Source: Bordetella sp. H567 (GTDB lineage: Bacteria; Pseudomonadota; Gammaproteobacteria; Burkholderiales; Burkholderiaceae_B). Taken from it: DNA of 40,000 bases. Positions 98 through 18,985 of this stretch are shown in pieces (within the stretch, counting starts at the first letter, position 1; every line of letters begins with the position of its first letter). The notes beneath the pieces were generated by a model. It ran no database searches. It was not told the origin of the DNA and worked only from the letters and a program-made list of their open reading frames with translations. Where the stretch lies: NCBI RefSeq assembly GCF_001704295.1, contig NZ_CP012334.1, positions 716,084 through 756,083 on the forward strand, read 5' to 3'. Made by a program: the position numbers and the translations under genes.

Positions 98-1108
98 ATG
101 AACATTGCGGGAATCAAAGCGCGCCGTCTTCGTGAAAGCATGCCTACGCTGGCACAGGCATTGGATCGGTATCTCAACGAGGTGTCATCCACGAAAAAGG
201 GATACGTTCAGGAGCGCTCGATCGCCCGCGCTTGGCTCGGGACGCGTCTCGCGCAGCGGCCGGTCGATCGGATACGGAACACCGATCTGATCGCGATCCG
301 AGATGCCTGGCAGGCAGAGTGCGCCGCGTCCACGGTGGTGCGGCGCCTGGCGCTTCTATCGCATGTTTACACGGTTATCCGGAAGGACTGGGGGTTCGAT
401 GCGCTGGCAAATCCGGTGCAGCTCGTGCGCCGGCCTGCTGTCGACGACGCGCGCGATCGCCGTTTCCTTGATCGCATCCGGTTGCGAGGTCTTTCCGAGG
501 CGGATTGCCCGCGGCAAGAGGTGGTATGGCTTATGCGCGCCACCCAATCTCAGGAGCTACCGACTATCTTGACCGTGGCCGTGGAAACCGGCATGCGAAG
601 GTCGGAGATAGTCGGCGTCAGGCGTGAGAACTTGGACCTGCAGCACGGCGTTATCCATATCCCGCACTCGAAGAATGGCCGGTCAAGGGACGTCCCCCTG
701 ACGCCCGTGGCACGGGAGGCGTTGAGGCAGTGGGTGGTCGGTAAGCCCATGCGCGGCCGCATTTTTTCTATGCAGCCAGGCTCGGTGACACGGGCGTTTA
801 TCCGCGCGCGCCAACGGGCCAGGCGCCAGTATGAAGCGCTGTGCAAGACCAACGGTCGGCGGCCGAACCCGGCTTACTTCAACGACCTCCGGTTCCATGA
901 CGCGCGCCATGAAGGCACATCGCGTTTAGCGACGGTGTTCGAGATCCACGAATTGGCGAAGGTCAACGGCAATGTGGATACGCGGATGCTTCTACGCTAT
1001 TACCACCCGCTTGGCAGGGAACTCGCACAGAAGCTTGCGCGGAGCGCGCTAGGCAGGCGGCAGATCGCCGAGATTCGCGAGAGCCGCCTGCTGCTTGAGG
1101 CCGCTTAG
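98..1108 (+). CDS. Tyrosine recombinase, Rci-like; candidate shufflon recombinase, alternatively the prophage integrase
   Basis: 336 aa. Catalytic-domain motifs: AVETGMRRSEIVGVRRENLDLQHGVIHIPHSKNGRSRDVPL (Arg box), LRFHDARHEGTSR (H-x-x-R), LLRYYH (Tyr). N-terminal LAQALDRYLNEVSSTKKGYVQE...NPVQLVRRPAVDDARDRRF parallels my recollection of R64 Rci. Convergent with the tfa gene; stops overlap as TTAG at 1105-1108. Confidence 0.85.
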   Translation: MNIAGIKARRLRESMPTLAQALDRYLNEVSSTKKGYVQERSIARAWLGTRLAQRPVDRIRNTDLIAIRDAWQAECAASTVVRRLALLSHVYTVIRKDWGFDALANPVQLVRRPAVDDARDRRFLDRIRLRGLSEADCPRQEVVWLMRATQSQELPTILTVAVETGMRRSEIVGVRRENLDLQHGVIHIPHSKNGRSRDVPLTPVAREALRQWVVGKPMRGRIFSMQPGSVTRAFIRARQRARRQYEALCKTNGRRPNPAYFNDLRFHDARHEGTSRLATVFEIHELAKVNGNVDTRMLLRYYHPLGRELAQKLARSALGRRQIAEIRESRLLLEAA

Positions 1109-1449
1109 TCGCCAACTTGCGCGACCGGCGCGGTGGCCGTAAGCCAATCCGGTATCGGCCCCCAACCGGCGTAGGCCACCTGGTCGCCGCCTATCTCGAT
1201 CACGCTGCCGTGCGTGTACTGCTCGCTGGTGTCGACCACGTACAGCGCGGCGGCGCGGTGGTCCTCCACACTTTCCCAGGCGGCGCCGGTCCAGCGTGCC
1301 ACCTGTCCTTCCGCTACTTGCGGCGGGGGACTCTCCACCGCCCCATAGGGCACATTGAAGCTGCCAGCCTGCAGGGCAAGCTCGTTGGCGATGGTTTCGT
1401 AGAGGAAGAGTCCATCGAGATTTGTCTGAAAAACGGTCTTGGTTTTCAC
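1105..1449 (-). CDS. gpG: Tail fibre assembly protein (P2 gpG / Tfa family chaperone)
   Basis: 114 aa with a Tfa-like core: PPPQVAEGQVARWTGAAWESVEDHR...GPIPDWLTATAP. GTG start preceded by AAGGTGA. Lies immediately outside the last cassette. Confidence 0.75.
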   Translation of the reverse strand: MKTKTVFQTNLDGLFLYETIANELALQAGSFNVPYGAVESPPPQVAEGQVARWTGAAWESVEDHRAAALYVVDTSEQYTHGSVIEIGGDQVAYAGWGPIPDWLTATAPVAQVGD

Positions 1450-1474: not shown

Positions 1475-1486
1475 CACTGCAAATGC
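1475..1486 (+). repeat. Core repeat S1 (CACTGCAAATGC), start of cassette E
   Basis: Exact 12-mer. Extended context CACTGCAAATGCGAGGACGCTGGGAA encodes TANARTLG. Confidence 0.9.
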
Positions 1487-1748
1487 GAGGACGCTGGGAA
1501 CTCGGCAGGCCGACGCTGGCCAGCGGTTCTCTGGCAACGTGAACTCTGTGCTGCGCGTGTCGCAGACTGAGGTCGCCGATGGAGTCTTCGTTAACCATCC
1601 TGTGCCCCAGCCTTTGCCGGTAAACACAGGCAGCACGTCGAGCGTCGTCGGCATAGTCGGGTTCAGCATCGACAATGCGAGACAGATCCGCGCGTCCACC
1701 GAAACCCGCGCTCTCAATACCGCCTTTTGTCCGCGCATCCATGTTTGA
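1475..1748 (+). other. Silent tail-fibre C-terminal cassette E (inverted relative to H)
   Basis: Open from the core: TANARTLGTRQADAGQRF...STETRALNTAFCPRIHV*. It is the most divergent cassette. Confidence 0.7.
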
Positions 1749-2019
1749 CGTACCTTTCACTGCAAATGCGAGAGCGCTGGGATCGCGCCAGTCCGCAGCC
1801 ATCGGCGGCCACCGGCACGCCCTTCGGTCCGCCTCCTCGGGCTCGTTTCCAAATACCCTTGGCACCGCCGGATCCTCGGATGCACTTGCATTGAAAGACA
1901 TGGCCGGCCCCATCTCGATCAATGCGTCTTTGGACATCAACGTAATGACGTCCGGCGAGAATGTTGGGAAAGAAACGCGCCCGGCGAACACCGCCTTCCA
2001 TCCTCGCATCCATGCCTGA
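1741..2019 (+). other. Silent tail-fibre C-terminal cassette D (inverted relative to H)
   Basis: MFDVPFTANARALGSRQSAAIGGHRHAL...GKETRPANTAFHPRIHA*. No SD; its ATG overlaps the end of cassette E. Confidence 0.75.
1758..1769 (+). repeat. Core repeat S2, start of cassette D
   Basis: Exact 12-mer. Context TTTCACTGCAAATGCGAGAGCGCTGGGAT encodes FTANARALG. Confidence 0.9.
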
Positions 2020-2284
2020 CGTCCTTTTCACTGCAAATGCAAGGGCATTCGGCGGCCGACAACTGGACGCCTTCCAAAACATCTACGGCTCCATCCCGGC
2101 TACCGGTACGCAGATAGAGTTGGCTACGGGAGTTTTCCAGCTTATGCCTCAGCCGCAAGCGTTTTGGACCGGAACGTCGGCGGCCGGCTTCGATGGGTTC
2201 AACTTCGATGCCAGCCGGGTGGCGCGGACGTCGTCGGAAACGCGGCCTGTCAACGTCGTTTTTCATCCGCGTATTCATGCCTAA
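2012..2284 (+). other. Silent tail-fibre C-terminal cassette C (inverted relative to H)
   Basis: MPDVLFTANARAFGGRQLDAFQNIYG...SSETRPVNVVFHPRIHA*. Its stop lies 1 nt from the convergent stop of cassette B. Confidence 0.75.
2029..2040 (+). repeat. Core repeat S3, start of cassette C
   Basis: Exact 12-mer. Context TTTTCACTGCAAATGCAAGGGCATTCGG encodes FTANARAFG. Confidence 0.9.
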
Positions 2285-2285
2285 T

Positions 2286-2522
2286 CTATGCGTGGATTCT
2301 CGGCGAAAACGCGGTATTCGTTGGGCGGGTTTCTGAACCGCCAGTTGGTGCGATGGAAGTCAGCACGAACGTTCCGCCGGTATTCGGCAGATTCGCGGTC
2401 GGACCGGTGCCGCCGCCGACCACATTGGCGCCGCTCTGGAGATTGTGGATGTGCGACCGGAACGCGTCAATCTGTCGACTTCCCAGTGCCCTTGCATTTG
2501 CAGTGAAAGGCACGTCACGCAT
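2286..2522 (-). other. Silent tail-fibre C-terminal cassette B (same orientation as H, directly downstream)
   Basis: MRDVPFTANARALGSRQIDAFRSHIHNL...GGSETRPTNTAFSPRIHA*. Its ATG overlaps the H stop (CATGCGTGACGTGCC). Confidence 0.75.
2494..2505 (-). repeat. Core repeat S4 (inverted relative to S1-S3), start of cassette B
   Basis: Plus strand reads GCATTTGCAGTG. Reverse complement context is TTTCACTGCAAATGCAAGGGCACTGGGAA. Confidence 0.9.
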
Positions 2523-3837
2523 GGATTCGCGGGTGATAAGCGGCGTTGACGGGGCGCGTCTCGGTTCCGCCGGTGACCAGGGTGGTGTACGTCAGCGCGC
2601 CGCCGCCGTCGAGGACCGATTGGTTGGCGCCAGACGCAGCCGCCGTGTTGCTGTATCGGAGATTGTGGGCGTGGGACTGAAGCTGGGCCGTCTGGCGGCT
2701 GCCCAGTGCCCTCGCATTTGCAGTGTCAGCGTCAGTCCCGGTGTAGCGGCGGAACATGTTGCGCAGATCCGGTACCCGGAAATTGTTGGCGTCCACGTCG
2801 ACGAAGTAGTGCGCGCCGACGTTGGCCGTCCAAACGGCCTGTGAGACCAGCAGGCCGTTTTGCTGGGCATACCCCCAAAGCGCGCCGTAGGCAGTCTTGC
2901 TCAGCAAGCCGCCGACCGCGTCGACCTCGGAGGGTAGAGGGCTCACCGTGTGGCCGTCCACGGGCCTGCCGCAAAGCGGAGATTTGTACCCGGTGAAATA
3001 TGCCGTGCTTACCCAGGTCCAGATCTCGGCGGCTTCGATGACCAGGATCGGGCCCTGGTCCTGAGCTGGCAACGCCAGGATCGAATACGCCTTCGGGTAC
3101 GACGCGAGGGCTTGCGTTATCGCGGCGGCGATCTGCAAATCCTGGAAGACCTCCGCCGGTGTCCGAGGGACCAAGGCGTTCACGCCGTCGCCCTTTAGGT
3201 AGGACCCAGCGGCGACGGAGGCAAGCCCGGTACCGCCCCGTGGCACCGGCAGGGTGCCTGCGGTGGCTTTACTCACGTCCAATGCCTTGACCACAATCTG
3301 GATGTCGCCGGCGCCGTCGAGCGCCACGGCATCGGCCGTCGCGCCGCCCGTAACCGAAATGTTCTTGTGCAGCTTGTCGTCGACGTACTTGCGCGTGGCC
3401 AGGACAACGGCAGGGTCGATCTTCAGGACAAATGCGGCGGTGCTGGCGACCATCAGCACCAGGCGCACGATTTGCTCCCGCGCGGATCCTTCCGCGAGCA
3501 CCGGCTTGTACGTCTCCGGGCAGTTCGCCACGGCCACAAGATCCCCATCGGCGTCGTAGAGGCCAATTTCTCGGATGTACCAGCCGCCCGCGTCTTCCGG
3601 GATCACCTGCTCGGCGATTAGGTAGTTCGGATTGTTCTCGTCCTGCTTCAGCGTGTTCAGCGGCGCCCGCCGCTTCTCGTCGATGAGCGCCGTCTGCGCT
3701 CGATCGGGGATTGGCGTGGCGCCGCCGCCGTCGCCCACGGCCATATGCGTAATTTGCACCAGCCGATTAATGGCCTGGGCGGCTGCCTGTTTGTTCTCTC
3801 CGATACGGGTCAGGAGGCCGAAGAATTGTTGAGTCAT
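2515..3837 (-). CDS. gpH: Tail fibre protein (P2 gpH-like), currently carrying cassette A as its C terminus
   Basis: Start at MTQQFFGLLTRIGENKQAAA..., with ATGA overlap onto the gpI stop; the 593-aa track ORF is an upstream over-extension. N terminus is gpH-like. C terminus is tail-collar-like: NNFRVPDLRNMFRR...SHAHNL...GGTETRPVNAAYHPRIHA. Confidence 0.9.
   Translation of the reverse strand: MTQQFFGLLTRIGENKQAAAQAINRLVQITHMAVGDGGGATPIPDRAQTALIDEKRRAPLNTLKQDENNPNYLIAEQVIPEDAGGWYIREIGLYDADGDLVAVANCPETYKPVLAEGSAREQIVRLVLMVASTAAFVLKIDPAVVLATRKYVDDKLHKNISVTGGATADAVALDGAGDIQIVVKALDVSKATAGTLPVPRGGTGLASVAAGSYLKGDGVNALVPRTPAEVFQDLQIAAAITQALASYPKAYSILALPAQDQGPILVIEAAEIWTWVSTAYFTGYKSPLCGRPVDGHTVSPLPSEVDAVGGLLSKTAYGALWGYAQQNGLLVSQAVWTANVGAHYFVDVDANNFRVPDLRNMFRRYTGTDADTANARALGSRQTAQLQSHAHNLRYSNTAAASGANQSVLDGGGALTYTTLVTGGTETRPVNAAYHPRIHA
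2714..2725 (-). repeat. Core repeat S5, inside the expressed tail-fibre gene at the constant/variable junction
   Basis: Plus strand reads GCATTTGCAGTG. Reverse complement context is GACGCTGACACTGCAAATGCGAGGGCACTGGGCA, encoding DADTANARALG. Confidence 0.9.
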
Positions 3838-14629: not shown

Positions 14630-15687
14630 TGAAAGCTACCCAGCGCGCAGCGAATAAAATGGACGTGCCGCAGGCGCCAGCACATTCGACAAGCGTTCAG
14701 GCATTTTCGTTCGGCGAGCCCGAGCCAGTGCTGAATCGGCGCGAGATCCTGGACTATATCGAATGCTGGAATAACGGCCGATGGTACGAGCCGCCGGTCA
14801 GCTTCGCCGGCCTCGCGAAGTCGTTCCGGGCCAGCACGCACCACAGTTCCGCGATCTACTTTAAGGCCAATATCCTGGCTTCGACGCTCCGGCCGAATCC
14901 CTACTTGAGCCGTCTCACGATGAAGAAGCTGGCCGTCGATTTCCAGATCTTCGGCAATGCTTACCCGGTGCGCTCTCTGAGCATGACCGGCAAGCTTCTT
15001 TCCGTTGAATCGCGGCTCGCCAAGTACGTGCGCCGTGGCTTGGACATGGACACCTATTATTGGGTGCCGGCCTACAGCCAAGAGCAGCAGTTCGCGCCCG
15101 ACGAGATCTTCCAGCTGATCGACCCGGACGTGAATCAGGAGGTCTATGGGCTCCCGGAGTATCTCAGCACGCTCCAGTCGGCCTGGCTGAACGAATCGGC
15201 GACGCTGTTCCGCCGGAAGTACTACAACAACGGCAGCCACGCCGGGTTCATTCTGTACATGAACGATGCGGCCCAGAATCAGGAGGACATCGACAACGTG
15301 CGCGAGGCGATGAAAAACGCGAAGGGGCCGGGCAACTTCCGGAACCTGTTTATCTACTCGCCCAACGGCAAGAAGGACGGCATCCAATTGATCCCGGTCA
15401 GCGAGGTCGCGGCGAAGGATGATTTTTTCAACATCAAGAACGTCACGCGCGACGACATCCTTGCGGCGCATCGCGTTCCGCCACAGCTTATGGGCATTGT
15501 GCCGAGCAACACCGGCGGGTTTGGCGCAATCATTCCCGCGGCTCAGGTGTTCGCCACGAATGAGATCGAACCATTGCAGGCCAGATTCATGGAGATCAAT
15601 GATTGGCTAGGGGTAAAGGCGATCGCCTTCGATCCTTATCGCGTGGACGTTACAGTATCGAGTGGCGAGAAGCCATCGGTCACCTAA
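14626..15687 (+). CDS. gpQ: Portal protein (P2 gpQ)
   Basis: 353 aa. ATGA overlap with P, giving the P-then-Q order of P2. Confidence 0.9.
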   Translation: MMKATQRAANKMDVPQAPAHSTSVQAFSFGEPEPVLNRREILDYIECWNNGRWYEPPVSFAGLAKSFRASTHHSSAIYFKANILASTLRPNPYLSRLTMKKLAVDFQIFGNAYPVRSLSMTGKLLSVESRLAKYVRRGLDMDTYYWVPAYSQEQQFAPDEIFQLIDPDVNQEVYGLPEYLSTLQSAWLNESATLFRRKYYNNGSHAGFILYMNDAAQNQEDIDNVREAMKNAKGPGNFRNLFIYSPNGKKDGIQLIPVSEVAAKDDFFNIKNVTRDDILAAHRVPPQLMGIVPSNTGGFGAIIPAAQVFATNEIEPLQARFMEINDWLGVKAIAFDPYRVDVTVSSGEKPSVT

Positions 15688-16673
15688 ACCCGCGCGGCGC
15701 GTTCACCGGTGACTTTCCGCGCCGGCTTATCTTCCCGCACGCCCTGGAACGATGCCTGCCGCAGAATGCCGCCATCCGTGATGGTGGTGTAGGCCACTTC
15801 CACGACGAGTTCCGGCCGCACCCAGTGCATGGTGGGCTTGGAATTGCCGCCCCACCGATCGGACAGGACCGGCCGCTCCGTGAACGGCATCTCGTCCGTC
15901 GCCAACGGCGCCAAGCGCTTCATGAGCATGTCGATGGTGCCGCCGCTGAAACCCGTGCCGACTCGGCCGGAATAGCGCAGCTTGTCGCCCTCACGCAGCC
16001 CGACGAGCAGGGCGCCGAAGCCCGTGCGCGATCCGCCCGGGTTTGTCCAGCCACCGACGACGAATTCCTGACGCGGCCGGCATTTCAACTTGATCCAGGT
16101 ATCCGTGCGGCCGGCGCGGTACGGCGCGTCCTTGCGCTTGCCTATCAGCCCTTCCAGCTGCCGCCGGCAGGCTTCAGCCAGCAGCTCGGCCGCGTGATCG
16201 CCCGTATCGACGTCGGCCACCACGCTGCGGACGATGGCTGCGTTCTCCGGCACGCCGGCCAGCACCGCCTGCAGGGCCTTGGCACGCTCCGAAAAAGGGT
16301 AGTCGCGTAGGTCCTTCCCGTTCCAGTACGGGACGTCGAACGCGACGAACTGCACCTGCTTCGCTACGCTCTTGTCCATCGCGTTTTGCAGGCGCTGGAA
16401 GCTGCTGATCCCGTATTCATCCATGACGACGATCTCGCCGTCCAGCCAGCCGGTGCCGGTGCCCAGCTCCAGCGCTCGGATGCGCGCGACCAGGTCGGCG
16501 AGCTTCGGCGTCCAGTCCTTTGCCTCGCGGCTGTAGAAGCGCGCGCCCGCGTCGTCGATCCGGCACAGCATCCGATAGCCGTCGAACTTGACCTCGTAGG
16601 CGTAGCCGCCGGAGGGCGGCTCCTTCACCAGCGTGGCCAGTGGCGGCTTGACGAAGTCGGGCAGGGCGGACAT
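15684..16673 (-). CDS. ATP-dependent DNA ligase, stand-alone LigD/LigC-type ligase domain
   Basis: 329 aa. Nucleotidyltransferase motifs EVKFDGYRM (I, KxDGxR), LDGEIVV (III), FVAFDVPY (IIIa), EGLIGKR (IV), WIKLK (V), followed by an OB-fold-length tail. Confidence 0.88.
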   Translation of the reverse strand: MSALPDFVKPPLATLVKEPPSGGYAYEVKFDGYRMLCRIDDAGARFYSREAKDWTPKLADLVARIRALELGTGTGWLDGEIVVMDEYGISSFQRLQNAMDKSVAKQVQFVAFDVPYWNGKDLRDYPFSERAKALQAVLAGVPENAAIVRSVVADVDTGDHAAELLAEACRRQLEGLIGKRKDAPYRAGRTDTWIKLKCRPRQEFVVGGWTNPGGSRTGFGALLVGLREGDKLRYSGRVGTGFSGGTIDMLMKRLAPLATDEMPFTERPVLSDRWGGNSKPTMHWVRPELVVEVAYTTITDGGILRQASFQGVREDKPARKVTGERAARV

Positions 16674-17361: not shown

Positions 17362-18084
17362 CTACTCCAGGGCGAACGGCTGCTGGCCCTGCTCAACCGG
17401 TTCTATGGCGTCGGGCCGCTCGTAGCGATAATTGCCGACTTCCTGGCGCACGCGGTGCCAGGTGAAGGCGGATTCCGGCAGCGCATGCGCGAGTATTTCC
17501 CGGGCGCGCGTCAGCGTGGTCGCGGGGTCGACCCATTCGACGGCCAACTCCGGCGGCAGGGCCACCGGGCGCCGGTCATGCATGTCCACCATGCCGCCCT
17601 GGGTATCGTTCGTCACGATGGCCATGCCGTGTTCCTTGCCGTGCTCGCGGCCAGGGCGCCAGGCGCACACCGCGGCTAAGAACAGCGGTTCGTCGTTGGC
17701 GTGGTGGATGAAGTAGGGCACCTTCGGCCCCTTGGGATCGTCGGTCAACCACTTCCATTCGTACCAGCCATCGGCCGGCACGATCGCGCGGCCGCCTTCC
17801 TTCAGCAGCCAATTCCACGGCCATTTGCCCGCGGCGATGGTTTCGGTCTTGGCGTTGCTGATCGGCGCGCGGCGCCAGTCGCTGGGCTTGTAACCCCAGT
17901 AGATGCGCTCCACCTCCAGCTGCCCGCCGCTGAACCGATGGAAGGCCATGGGCCGTGCGCCCGGCGGGATGTTGTAGCGCGGGCCGACAGGGTCGGGCGG
18001 GAACAGCTCGCCCGCTCTGGGCGCCCTGATGATCTTTTCCAGGTAATCGTCCGGGTTGTTCTTCTGCACGATACGGCCACACAT
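17362..18084 (-). CDS. SOS response-associated peptidase (SRAP/YedK family)
   Basis: Start at MCGRIVQK (catalytic Cys2). The 344-aa track ORF is an upstream over-extension. Confidence 0.88.
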   Translation of the reverse strand: MCGRIVQKNNPDDYLEKIIRAPRAGELFPPDPVGPRYNIPPGARPMAFHRFSGGQLEVERIYWGYKPSDWRRAPISNAKTETIAAGKWPWNWLLKEGGRAIVPADGWYEWKWLTDDPKGPKVPYFIHHANDEPLFLAAVCAWRPGREHGKEHGMAIVTNDTQGGMVDMHDRRPVALPPELAVEWVDPATTLTRAREILAHALPESAFTWHRVRQEVGNYRYERPDAIEPVEQGQQPFALE

Positions 18085-18439
18085 GAGGCGCTCCGATTCG
18101 AAGGGGTACCTGGACATGGTATCGCAGCCGACAGCCCAACAGCGGGCCCGTATTACGGCCCCAGGGGCATCGGCGCTCGGGTGCGGCGCCGGCCCGCGGG
18201 CCGCGGCCCATCCCAGCCCGGCGCGCGCCGTCATCCCCCCACCTCGCCCGCTCGCCAAACGGAGCGCTTTTGACTCAGACCTGCGTCGTCCCGCCAGCCC
18301 GGCGCCATGCGGCGCTTTCGGGCATTGAGGCTCGCCTATTGGTGACGCAAAAAGACGCAGTCTGAGCCCGGCTCCGACCATGGATCGCCGGGGCATCGGC
18401 GGTGTACTCTCAGCGTTTTACAAATTGACCGGGTGACCC

Positions 18440-18985
18440 ATGAAGGACGAGGTGCAAGGGTTTTTCAAGATGCTGGCCACGTCGCCTAAGACGGTCTCCC
18501 TTGCAGCCGGGGTCGCCTGCATGACGCCCTATCTGTTGCGCGAGAAGAGTGGCTTGCCGGCGACGTATACCGGCTTTTTCTCCGTCGCCGCGATTTTCTT
18601 CCTGACCTTGTTCGCTGTGCTTGTTGTCCGTGCTTGTACTGACGGTCTGCGGGAATCTGGACGGGCGAAGAAAGCGCGCAAGGCCCGCTTCGAGGGGCTG
18701 GCGCTTGAAGAGCTTGAGGTGCTGGCTGCGTTTGTGATTCAGCAGGTGGACTCCCTGTTTTATCCCAGCGATCTGGTTGTCATCTCACGACTCTGGCGAC
18801 GCGAAATGTTGGTGTGCCTGCACACGCCTGACCTGATACAGCGATTCGAGATCGCCGACTGGGCACGGAAGGAACTCGAACTCGACCCGTCATTGCTTAA
18901 GGGGACGGACGGCGCTCACGCTGTGTCGGTCTCTACCGACTATTTCGATCGAAAGAAGAACGGCGAGTACGCCGCCCGTCGGTGA
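18440..18985 (+). CDS. Membrane protein resembling superinfection exclusion protein B (SieB family)
   Basis: 181 aa. Two N-terminal TM helices, a KKARKARF linker, then LALEELEVLAAFVIQQVDSLFYPSDLVVISRLWRREMLV, which matches my memory of the SieB-family pattern. Confidence 0.5.
   Translation: MKDEVQGFFKMLATSPKTVSLAAGVACMTPYLLREKSGLPATYTGFFSVAAIFFLTLFAVLVVRACTDGLRESGRAKKARKARFEGLALEELEVLAAFVIQQVDSLFYPSDLVVISRLWRREMLVCLHTPDLIQRFEIADWARKELELDPSLLKGTDGAHAVSVSTDYFDRKKNGEYAARR

Follow-up and report, generated by a model that had tools for sequence, protein, structure and literature searches.

The window analysed here is a stretch of 40,000 nucleotides from Bordetella sp. H567 (contig NZ_CP012334.1, forward strand, positions 716,084 to 756,083), and positions in it are counted from its first letter. 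At its left end lies an intact tyrosine recombinase gene, which codes for 336 aa from an ATG start. The gene is 370 bp from an array of short repeats that lies at the end of a tail-fibre gene, H, of a prophage (Table 1). The repeated core is CACTGCAAATGC (12 bp). We found five copies of it in the window, against 0.31 expected by chance (one mismatch allowed), and all of them are in 1475-2725, three on the + strand and two on the - strand. Each core opens an intact frame of 69-90 aa, which starts with TANARALGSRQ and runs to ETRPxNxAxxPRIHA and a stop codon. The five cassettes formed by these frames have conserved ends, and their middles are 32-49% identical. In functional terms, the layout found at this place is that of a shufflon, with short sites in both orientations, alternative 3′ ends of one gene, and an adjacent recombinase.

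Within the conserved fibre motif D-T-A-N-A-R-A-L-G, the core lies in the codons for Thr-Ala-Asn-Ala. These codons are rare in this phage (ACT makes up 4.9% of Thr codons, GCA 7.7% of Ala codons, and AAT 25% of Asn codons), yet the core is identical in the loci of Bordetella, Pandoraea, Burkholderia, and Herminiimonas. Rare codons combined with invariance across genera argue for selection on the DNA sequence of the core itself. Meanwhile, the left flank of the core is variable at the cassette sites, and the right flank is semi-conserved, which is confounded with coding constraint. The repeats common to the cassettes are imperfect, with a length of 40-100 bp and an identity of 76-85%. In addition, isolated P2-like and Mu-like phages of Burkholderia (KS14, KL3, KS10, and the phiE202-like group) match the fibre (window 2726-3000) only up to about the crossover point. 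Since these matches stop there, the site seems to lie at a natural domain boundary (a collar-type domain), where tips are also swapped in evolution.

Table 1. Features of the recombinase, chaperone, and tail-fibre region in the window (positions count from the first letter of the window)
Feature	Position	Strand	Remarks
Tyrosine recombinase, Rci/DusA-integrase-related group, proposed shufflon invertase	98..1108	+	Pfam PF00589, Rci alignment, AlphaFold2 (AF2) model, catalytic residues
G-like chaperone for tail-fibre assembly, 114 aa, not in the invertible region and fixed	1105..1449	-	PHROG 105 'tail fiber assembly' E 3.6e-8
Crossover core s1, CACTGCAAATGC	1475..1486	+	
Silent C-terminal cassette C, 90 aa + stop	1476..1748	+	intact frame TANARTLGTRQ...PRIHV, then stop
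Crossover core s2	1758..1769	+	
Silent cassette D, 86 aa + stop	1759..2019	+	intact frame
Crossover core s3	2029..2040	+	
Silent cassette E, 84 aa + stop	2030..2284	+	intact frame
Silent cassette B, 72 aa + stop, H orientation	2286..2504	-	intact frame
Crossover core s4	2494..2505	-	
Cassette A, currently expressed, 69 aa + stop, in-frame fusion to H	2515..2724	-	intact frame
Crossover core s5, H constant/variable junction (GCTGA-CACTGCAAATGC)	2714..2725	-	same 17-mer in 97 IMG/VR stretches
Constant part of tail-fibre gene H, ~369 aa	2726..3831	-	Pfam Phage_tail_fib N-terminal domain E 9.7e-57; PHROG 327 E 2e-98

In the recombinase, the Pfam domain Phage_integrase (PF00589) spans residues 145-304 (E 5.9e-19, 68.9 bits against a cut-off of 27.1). 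It is the sole Pfam match on the protein, and no resolvase-type domain was found there. Among the NCBIfam models, none reached its cut-off, and the XerC and 'tyrosine-type DNA invertase' models were far under threshold. The catalytic residues R167, K192, H267, R270, and Y301 are present, so the R...HxxR...Y pattern and the length of 336 aa that the first-pass annotation had given from the sequence were borne out. In both homologue alignments, R167 and Y301 are invariant and H267 and R270 nearly so, while K192 is invariant in one alignment (A2) and nearly invariant in the other (A1). Furthermore, at least 120 homologues have a full-length identity of 62-95%, mainly in Bordetella, Achromobacter, Pandoraea, and Burkholderia. 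The gene is not a chance open reading frame, because 120 listed homologues align over the full length at this identity. The AF2 model (predicted local distance difference test score 87) includes the core-binding and catalytic domains only. Its fold matches are Tn1549 Int, lambda Int, XerA, and IntI, and the best are the arm-less constructs of the Tn1549 and lambda integrases. The recombinase has no N-terminal arm-binding domain, as its alignment begins at the core-binding domain and the model consists of two domains. Rci is also without this domain (PMC8138268).

No second tyrosine recombinase was detectable in the window. For a serine invertase, the window and five related loci were translated in six frames and searched with Mu Gin by phmmer, and the best match had an E value of 0.21. 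It had been claimed that the only recombinase near the array is of the tyrosine type and not a serine invertase, and both results agree with this. AOB33361.1 was considered as a second paralogue in Bordetella sp. H567 and was rejected, because it is the same gene with another annotated start (331 aa for AOB33361.1 in GenBank, 336 aa for WP_235610737.1 in RefSeq). In addition, promoter and terminator scans of the recombinase and array region gave nothing exceeding background.

To place the enzyme, Rci of IncK and IncI2 plasmids, each adjoining pilV and sfx repeats, served as proxies for Rci of plasmid R64 (AP005147). Directly 5′ of the IncK gene are pilV and an array in which GTGCCAATCCGGTNNGTGG is repeated, and the sfx consensus GTGCCAATCCGGTNNGTGG was recovered from this shufflon. 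In the BLASTP comparison with IncK Rci, 318 aa of the recombinase were aligned with 33% identity (137 bits, E 5e-42), whereas P2 Int gave 24 bits over 84 aa. The likeness to Rci that had been put forward earlier was therefore confirmed by this pairwise search. The motif blocks quoted at that time are all present and aligned with IncK and IncI2 Rci; only the last one reads RFHDARHE in the window, where HFHDxRHE had been given. The tblastn search of plasmids with the recombinase matched 2,291 records, of which 2,007 are conjugative, mostly from E. coli and Salmonella.

However, this likeness is not special to Rci. The identity of the recombinase is 36% to Rci, 38% to the PAJU2 integrase, and 35% to the RS-PII-1 integrase. 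By these values it is equally distant from Rci and from Rci-related phage integrases, and the term 'Rci-like' is valid at the level of the wider group only. The protein ends about 23 aa past the catalytic domain and the last aligned helix, while IncK and IncI2 Rci run about 75-90 aa further. Meanwhile, the tail-fibre-linked recombinases carry clade-specific insertions of roughly 20 aa. In the bootstrapped neighbour-joining tree of 23 sequences, the recombinases adjoining fibre arrays formed their own clade (96% bootstrap), nested in the Rci/integrase group (88% support). Thus placed, the recombinase seems to represent a distinct clade in the Rci/DusA-integrase group and not an orthologue of Rci. 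A Paraburkholderia terrae plasmid protein (42% identity) and a P. luteola protein were tried as members of the system and rejected, since neither has a fibre array or core nearby. In the phage collection, tblastn gave 107 matches to the recombinase with at most 36% identity. None of the isolated phages in this collection has the system, and the fibre tip region was matched there over its constant part only.

The recombinase was found together with the core at many other loci. The 17-mer of the H junction, GCTGACACTGCAAATGC, occurs in 97 stretches of IMG/VR. Where at least 4 kb past the junction is available, 21 of 24 stretches encode a homologue of the recombinase (45-93% identity), which is 0.7-4.8 kb away and nearly always convergent. 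With 2.5-4 kb available, the homologue is present in 12 of 15. The arrays include two to nine cores. At least one core is inverted relative to the junction in 53 of 56 arrays, and inverted cores outnumber direct cores by 105 to 19. In most related loci, a homologue of the chaperone separates the array from the recombinase. Furthermore, the module accompanies tail modules of two types, P2-like and Mu-like, and was found in Bordetella, Pandoraea, Burkholderia, and Herminiimonas. At one locus (L028:2472-4079), a divergent recombinase (45% identity) directly follows a two-core array on the H strand and is not convergent; it may be a second lineage acting on the same core. In Herminiimonas contaminans (L123:6001-9237), a putative lysis cassette of four unannotated open reading frames (holin-, endolysin-, and spanin-like) stands between the recombinase and the chaperone and array. 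Other genes can thus stand between array and recombinase.

Close relatives differ by rearrangements at the core. The B. bronchialis locus in CP178749 (L006) and two loci from other runs (L007 and L008) have an identical recombinase and 100% identical flanks, but their arrays differ. A segment of 507 bp has the opposite orientation, and two others of about 240 bp have changed places. At all four sites, the joints between left flanks and their different right flanks fall exactly in the 12-bp core, and the cassette fused to H is another one. According to our reconstruction, three successive inversions would suffice to interconvert the two arrays. In addition, a core-bounded inversion of about 410 bp distinguishes two Pandoraea sputorum loci (L014 and L015), whose flanks are 99.8-99.9% identical. 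As to the window itself, two independent short-read contigs with its exact recombinase end at 1769 (L003, in s2) and at 2040 (L002, in s3). Both positions are base 12 of a core, the point from which hybrid junctions would begin to differ, and these ends can be read as a sign of a mixed population of arrangements in the window's own phage. Besides these two, short-read contigs often end in or just past the array (the ends of L008 at 11894 and of L123 at 9237, and the same spot in many B. bronchialis runs). Since such ends recur at the array, these loci are systematically fragmented in public assemblies.

The gene lies within the tail operon and not at an end of the prophage. The recombinase and chaperone genes are convergent with overlapping stops, as had been noticed before, because the TAG at 1106-1108 (+) meets the chaperone stop at 1105-1107 (-). 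Contigs with the identical recombinase reach 6 kb left of the window, where we found a D12-class methyltransferase gene (L002:4918-5709 for the window's phage) and then the sheath, tube, chaperone, and tape measure genes. The gene order is therefore V-W-J-I-H, array, G-like chaperone, recombinase, methylase, and FI. The recombinase occupies the slot between G and the sheath gene where P2 carries Z/fun, and the earlier claim of this position was right. An att site or host sequence left of the gene had been suggested as a sign of an integrase; the tail genes are there instead. Right of the array are lysis, capsid, terminase, and portal genes to 15687, followed by host genes. With tail genes on the left and phage genes on the right, the gene is internal to an integrated prophage and no att site adjoins it.

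Several other genes of this prophage and its relatives were also seen. After the portal gene there are an ATP-dependent DNA ligase gene (15684-16673), an SRAP/SOS-response peptidase gene (17362-18396), and a SieB-like superinfection-exclusion gene (18440-18985). Then clear host genes follow, namely two TctC paralogues, an AraC/DJ-1 regulator, and a catalase. The B. bronchialis prophage has an equal layout, and its recombinase is 82% identical to that of the window. A RES-domain gene (L006:7545-8618) stands between its methylase and sheath genes, in the G/sheath cargo slot, and the window's phage is without it. In relatives, a gene for a Com-like zinc-ribbon protein and an N6/N4 DNA methyltransferase gene adjoin the recombinase (L006:8816-9740, L012:10990-11896, and L014:8728-9625). 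The window's phage has the D12-class methylase in place of this pair.

Taken together, we consider it very probable that the gene encodes a dedicated site-specific tyrosine DNA invertase, from a phage-borne sister lineage of plasmid Rci and the DusA-type integrases, which shuffles the tips of the tail fibre. The recombinase would bind the five cores, and strand exchange would take place between cores of opposite orientation. Every such inversion would join the constant 369 residues of H to another C-terminal tip of 69-90 residues, and successive inversions would permute the array as in a shufflon. A lysogen population could then release virions with up to five receptor-binding tips. On this model, the enzyme would catalyse the rearrangements seen in relatives, the locus in the window would be active, and the exchanged tips would probably alter the host range.

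Some observations weigh against this interpretation. The link between enzyme and site is drawn from their co-occurrence, and in three of the 24 loci neither a tyrosine recombinase nor a Gin-like one is present in the DNA available. Inversion at the window's own locus is deduced from its relatives and from the contig breaks. At the His/Trp position of the active site, the recombinase has Asn292 (window 971-973); the B. bronchialis recombinase has Asn as well, and most other clade members and homologues have His. The C-terminal extension of Rci is absent from the recombinase. A passage of PMC4482086, citing Gyohda 2006, describes this extension as essential for recombination of the asymmetric sfx sites. 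Because the domain thought to hold Rci to inversion is absent, a bias toward inversion would need other enforcement. Three arrays have all cores in direct orientation (L025:857-2107 with six cores, L052:4257-5195, and L022:20-236). This state can be neither reached nor left by inversion, which suggests deletion or duplication, locked variants, or misassembly. In addition, the protein group of the recombinase includes genuine integrases (PAJU2 and RS-PII-1). The recombinase tree that had been proposed as a check does give the separate clade, but in this small tree the nodes that connect it with Rci or with the integrases are supported at no more than 41-54%.

With these points in mind, other explanations were weighed. 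The recombinase could be the integrase of the prophage, oddly placed and unrelated to the array. Pfam, PHROG, and RefSeq all label it as an integrase, its group holds the real integrases just named, and the homologues of B. petrii and Hylemonella are at a prophage or contig edge, adjoining host genes. However, the Hylemonella contig stops right at the recombinase gene and is uninformative on context, and in prophages with Mu-like tails an edge position mirrors that of gin in Mu. In the window, tail genes on both sides, no adjoining att site, and no arm-binding domain all speak against an integrase of the P2 family, and the score against P2 Int is low as well. Furthermore, relatives have a separate integrase. 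In B. bronchialis it has 342 aa and lies at the far left end of the prophage, adjoining host genes. In the B. multivorans prophage, which has a Mu-like tail module, the recombinase adjoins the fibre array and a separate integrase of 419 aa carries the arm-binding domain. The recombinase tracks the fibre array over different prophage backbones, and we find it hardly credible that it is the prophage integrase.

General homologous recombination might also rearrange the array through the repeats at the cassette ends, with the recombinase as unrelated cargo or a remnant. The imperfect repeats of the cassettes would allow this, and the G/sheath slot is a cargo site, with methylases and the RES-domain gene in relatives. 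But all breakpoints in the two independent natural comparisons fall inside 12 identical bases though similarity reaches further, and 12 bp is less than RecA-type recombination normally needs. This explanation also accounts poorly for a core that is kept invariant in rare codons across genera, and for a recombinase that is present in 21 of 24 loci and that has its full length and its catalytic residues. We regard it as very unlikely. A similarly low probability is given to an enzyme that mainly deletes or captures cassettes between direct cores in the manner of an integron, and does not invert them reversibly. The missing C-terminal domain of Rci is linked to blocking direct-site recombination, and array sizes from two to nine cores and the three all-direct arrays would fit such an activity. 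However, the great excess of inverted over direct cores relative to the H junction is against it, and the natural differences are inversions and permutations in which no sequence was lost. Thus, inversion by the dedicated tyrosine invertase is the explanation that we prefer.

Beyond the window, the locus may serve as type example for a portable 'tail-fibre shufflon module', made up of an Rci-related invertase without the C-terminal domain of Rci, a 12-bp core identical from Bordetella to Burkholderia, mini-cassettes of 69-90 aa, and a single chaperone. Across Burkholderiales, it would have been exchanged between tail modules of the P2-like and the Mu-like type, and it would take the position of gin in Mu-like prophages; we give this wider proposal about an even chance. 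The system is real and widespread in myovirus prophages of Burkholderiales, and it is apparently undescribed. No description of it was found in the searchable literature, and a full-text literature search with the core sequence returned unrelated eukaryotic primers only. It was overlooked, as we see it, because of the automatic annotation as 'integrase'.

Tail-fibre switching sets the host range of phages. For Proteobacteria, serine invertases have been held responsible for it, and for Bordetella phages, diversity-generating retroelements. In the present system, an enzyme of another class would bring about the switch, in common prophages of Burkholderiales that are associated with cystic fibrosis (Bordetella, Achromobacter, Pandoraea, and Burkholderia). 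These fibres should be handled as multi-allelic when prophages are annotated and host ranges predicted, and candidates for phage therapy that come from these hosts may be of mixed tropism. In addition, the recombinase is compact, has a 12-bp core, and lacks a large C-terminal domain, which makes it a candidate tool for multiplex inversion, a use for which Rci is already being engineered (PMC11850598).

Among known systems, the serine-invertase switches (Gin and the G segment of Mu, Cin of P1, Pin of e14, and Min of p15B) have the same outcome and logic, with a fibre gene, invertible C-terminal segments, and an invertase. The series S-U, G segment, gin, com, and mom of Mu is mirrored in relatives of the window's phage by fibre, invertible segment, invertase, com, and a DNA-modification gene. 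However, the enzyme class is unrelated, and no resolvase-type protein is present in the window. Moreover, each Mu segment has its own chaperone, whereas the short cassettes here share one fixed chaperone. A gin-driven fibre shufflon with three isoforms was recently described in FR-phi (PMC13418256).

The first-pass annotation had called a tyrosine-recombinase shufflon on a phage receptor-binding protein unusual. This is still so, but there is a precedent. In Bifidobacterium prophages, the Rin shufflon was reported in 2018 to be the first in which a tyrosine invertase acts on a receptor-binding protein (PMC6109161). It likewise has a phage tyrosine invertase by an array of receptor-binding-protein C-termini, short asymmetric repeats, and a separate integrase elsewhere (PMC6109161). 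It differs in its actinobacterial host and siphoviruses, in that Rin was described as XerD-like, and in the 11-bp rix site TTCCCTAACCC (PMC6109161); the two are set apart here by description and site. No Bifidobacterium phage was among the 107 phage tblastn matches to the recombinase. Meanwhile, passages of a 2026 preprint describe a fibre shufflon in a BV01-like Phocaeicola phage (PMC13596623), which is also multi-cassette, overlaps the tail-fibre gene at its distal end, and has a flanking recombinase and a 10-bp directional motif. By that description, to which the comparison is confined, it differs in its Bacteroidota host and its motif, TGGGAGAACT (PMC13596623).

Phages of Pseudomonas, Ralstonia, and Burkholderia encode DusA-associated and Rci-like integrases (those of PAJU2, RS-PII-1, and others), which are similar to the recombinase in length, in the lack of the Rci C-terminal extension, and in sequence (35-38% identity). 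But they occupy ordinary integrase positions with no fibre array or cores nearby, and the tail-fibre-linked clade is separate from them in the tree. With the R64/IncI shufflon (Rci, sfx, and pilV), the system of the window shares an armless tyrosine recombinase with homologous core-binding and catalytic domains, and a multi-inversion array that exchanges the C-terminal segment of an adhesin-type protein. Both systems use asymmetric sites, in which a short core is invariant and one of the flanks is better conserved. The target is the tip of a conjugative pilus there and a phage tail fibre here, and the site GTGCCAATCCGGTNNGTGG is unrelated to CACTGCAAATGC. Furthermore, the window protein is without the C-terminal extension, has the clade insertions, and falls in a separate clade, and its gene is convergent with the target, whereas the gene of Rci is co-directional with it. 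Thus, the class of mechanism is known, and what is new is the Rci-related enzyme without the C-terminal domain, the new 12-bp site, and the very small cassettes with one chaperone.

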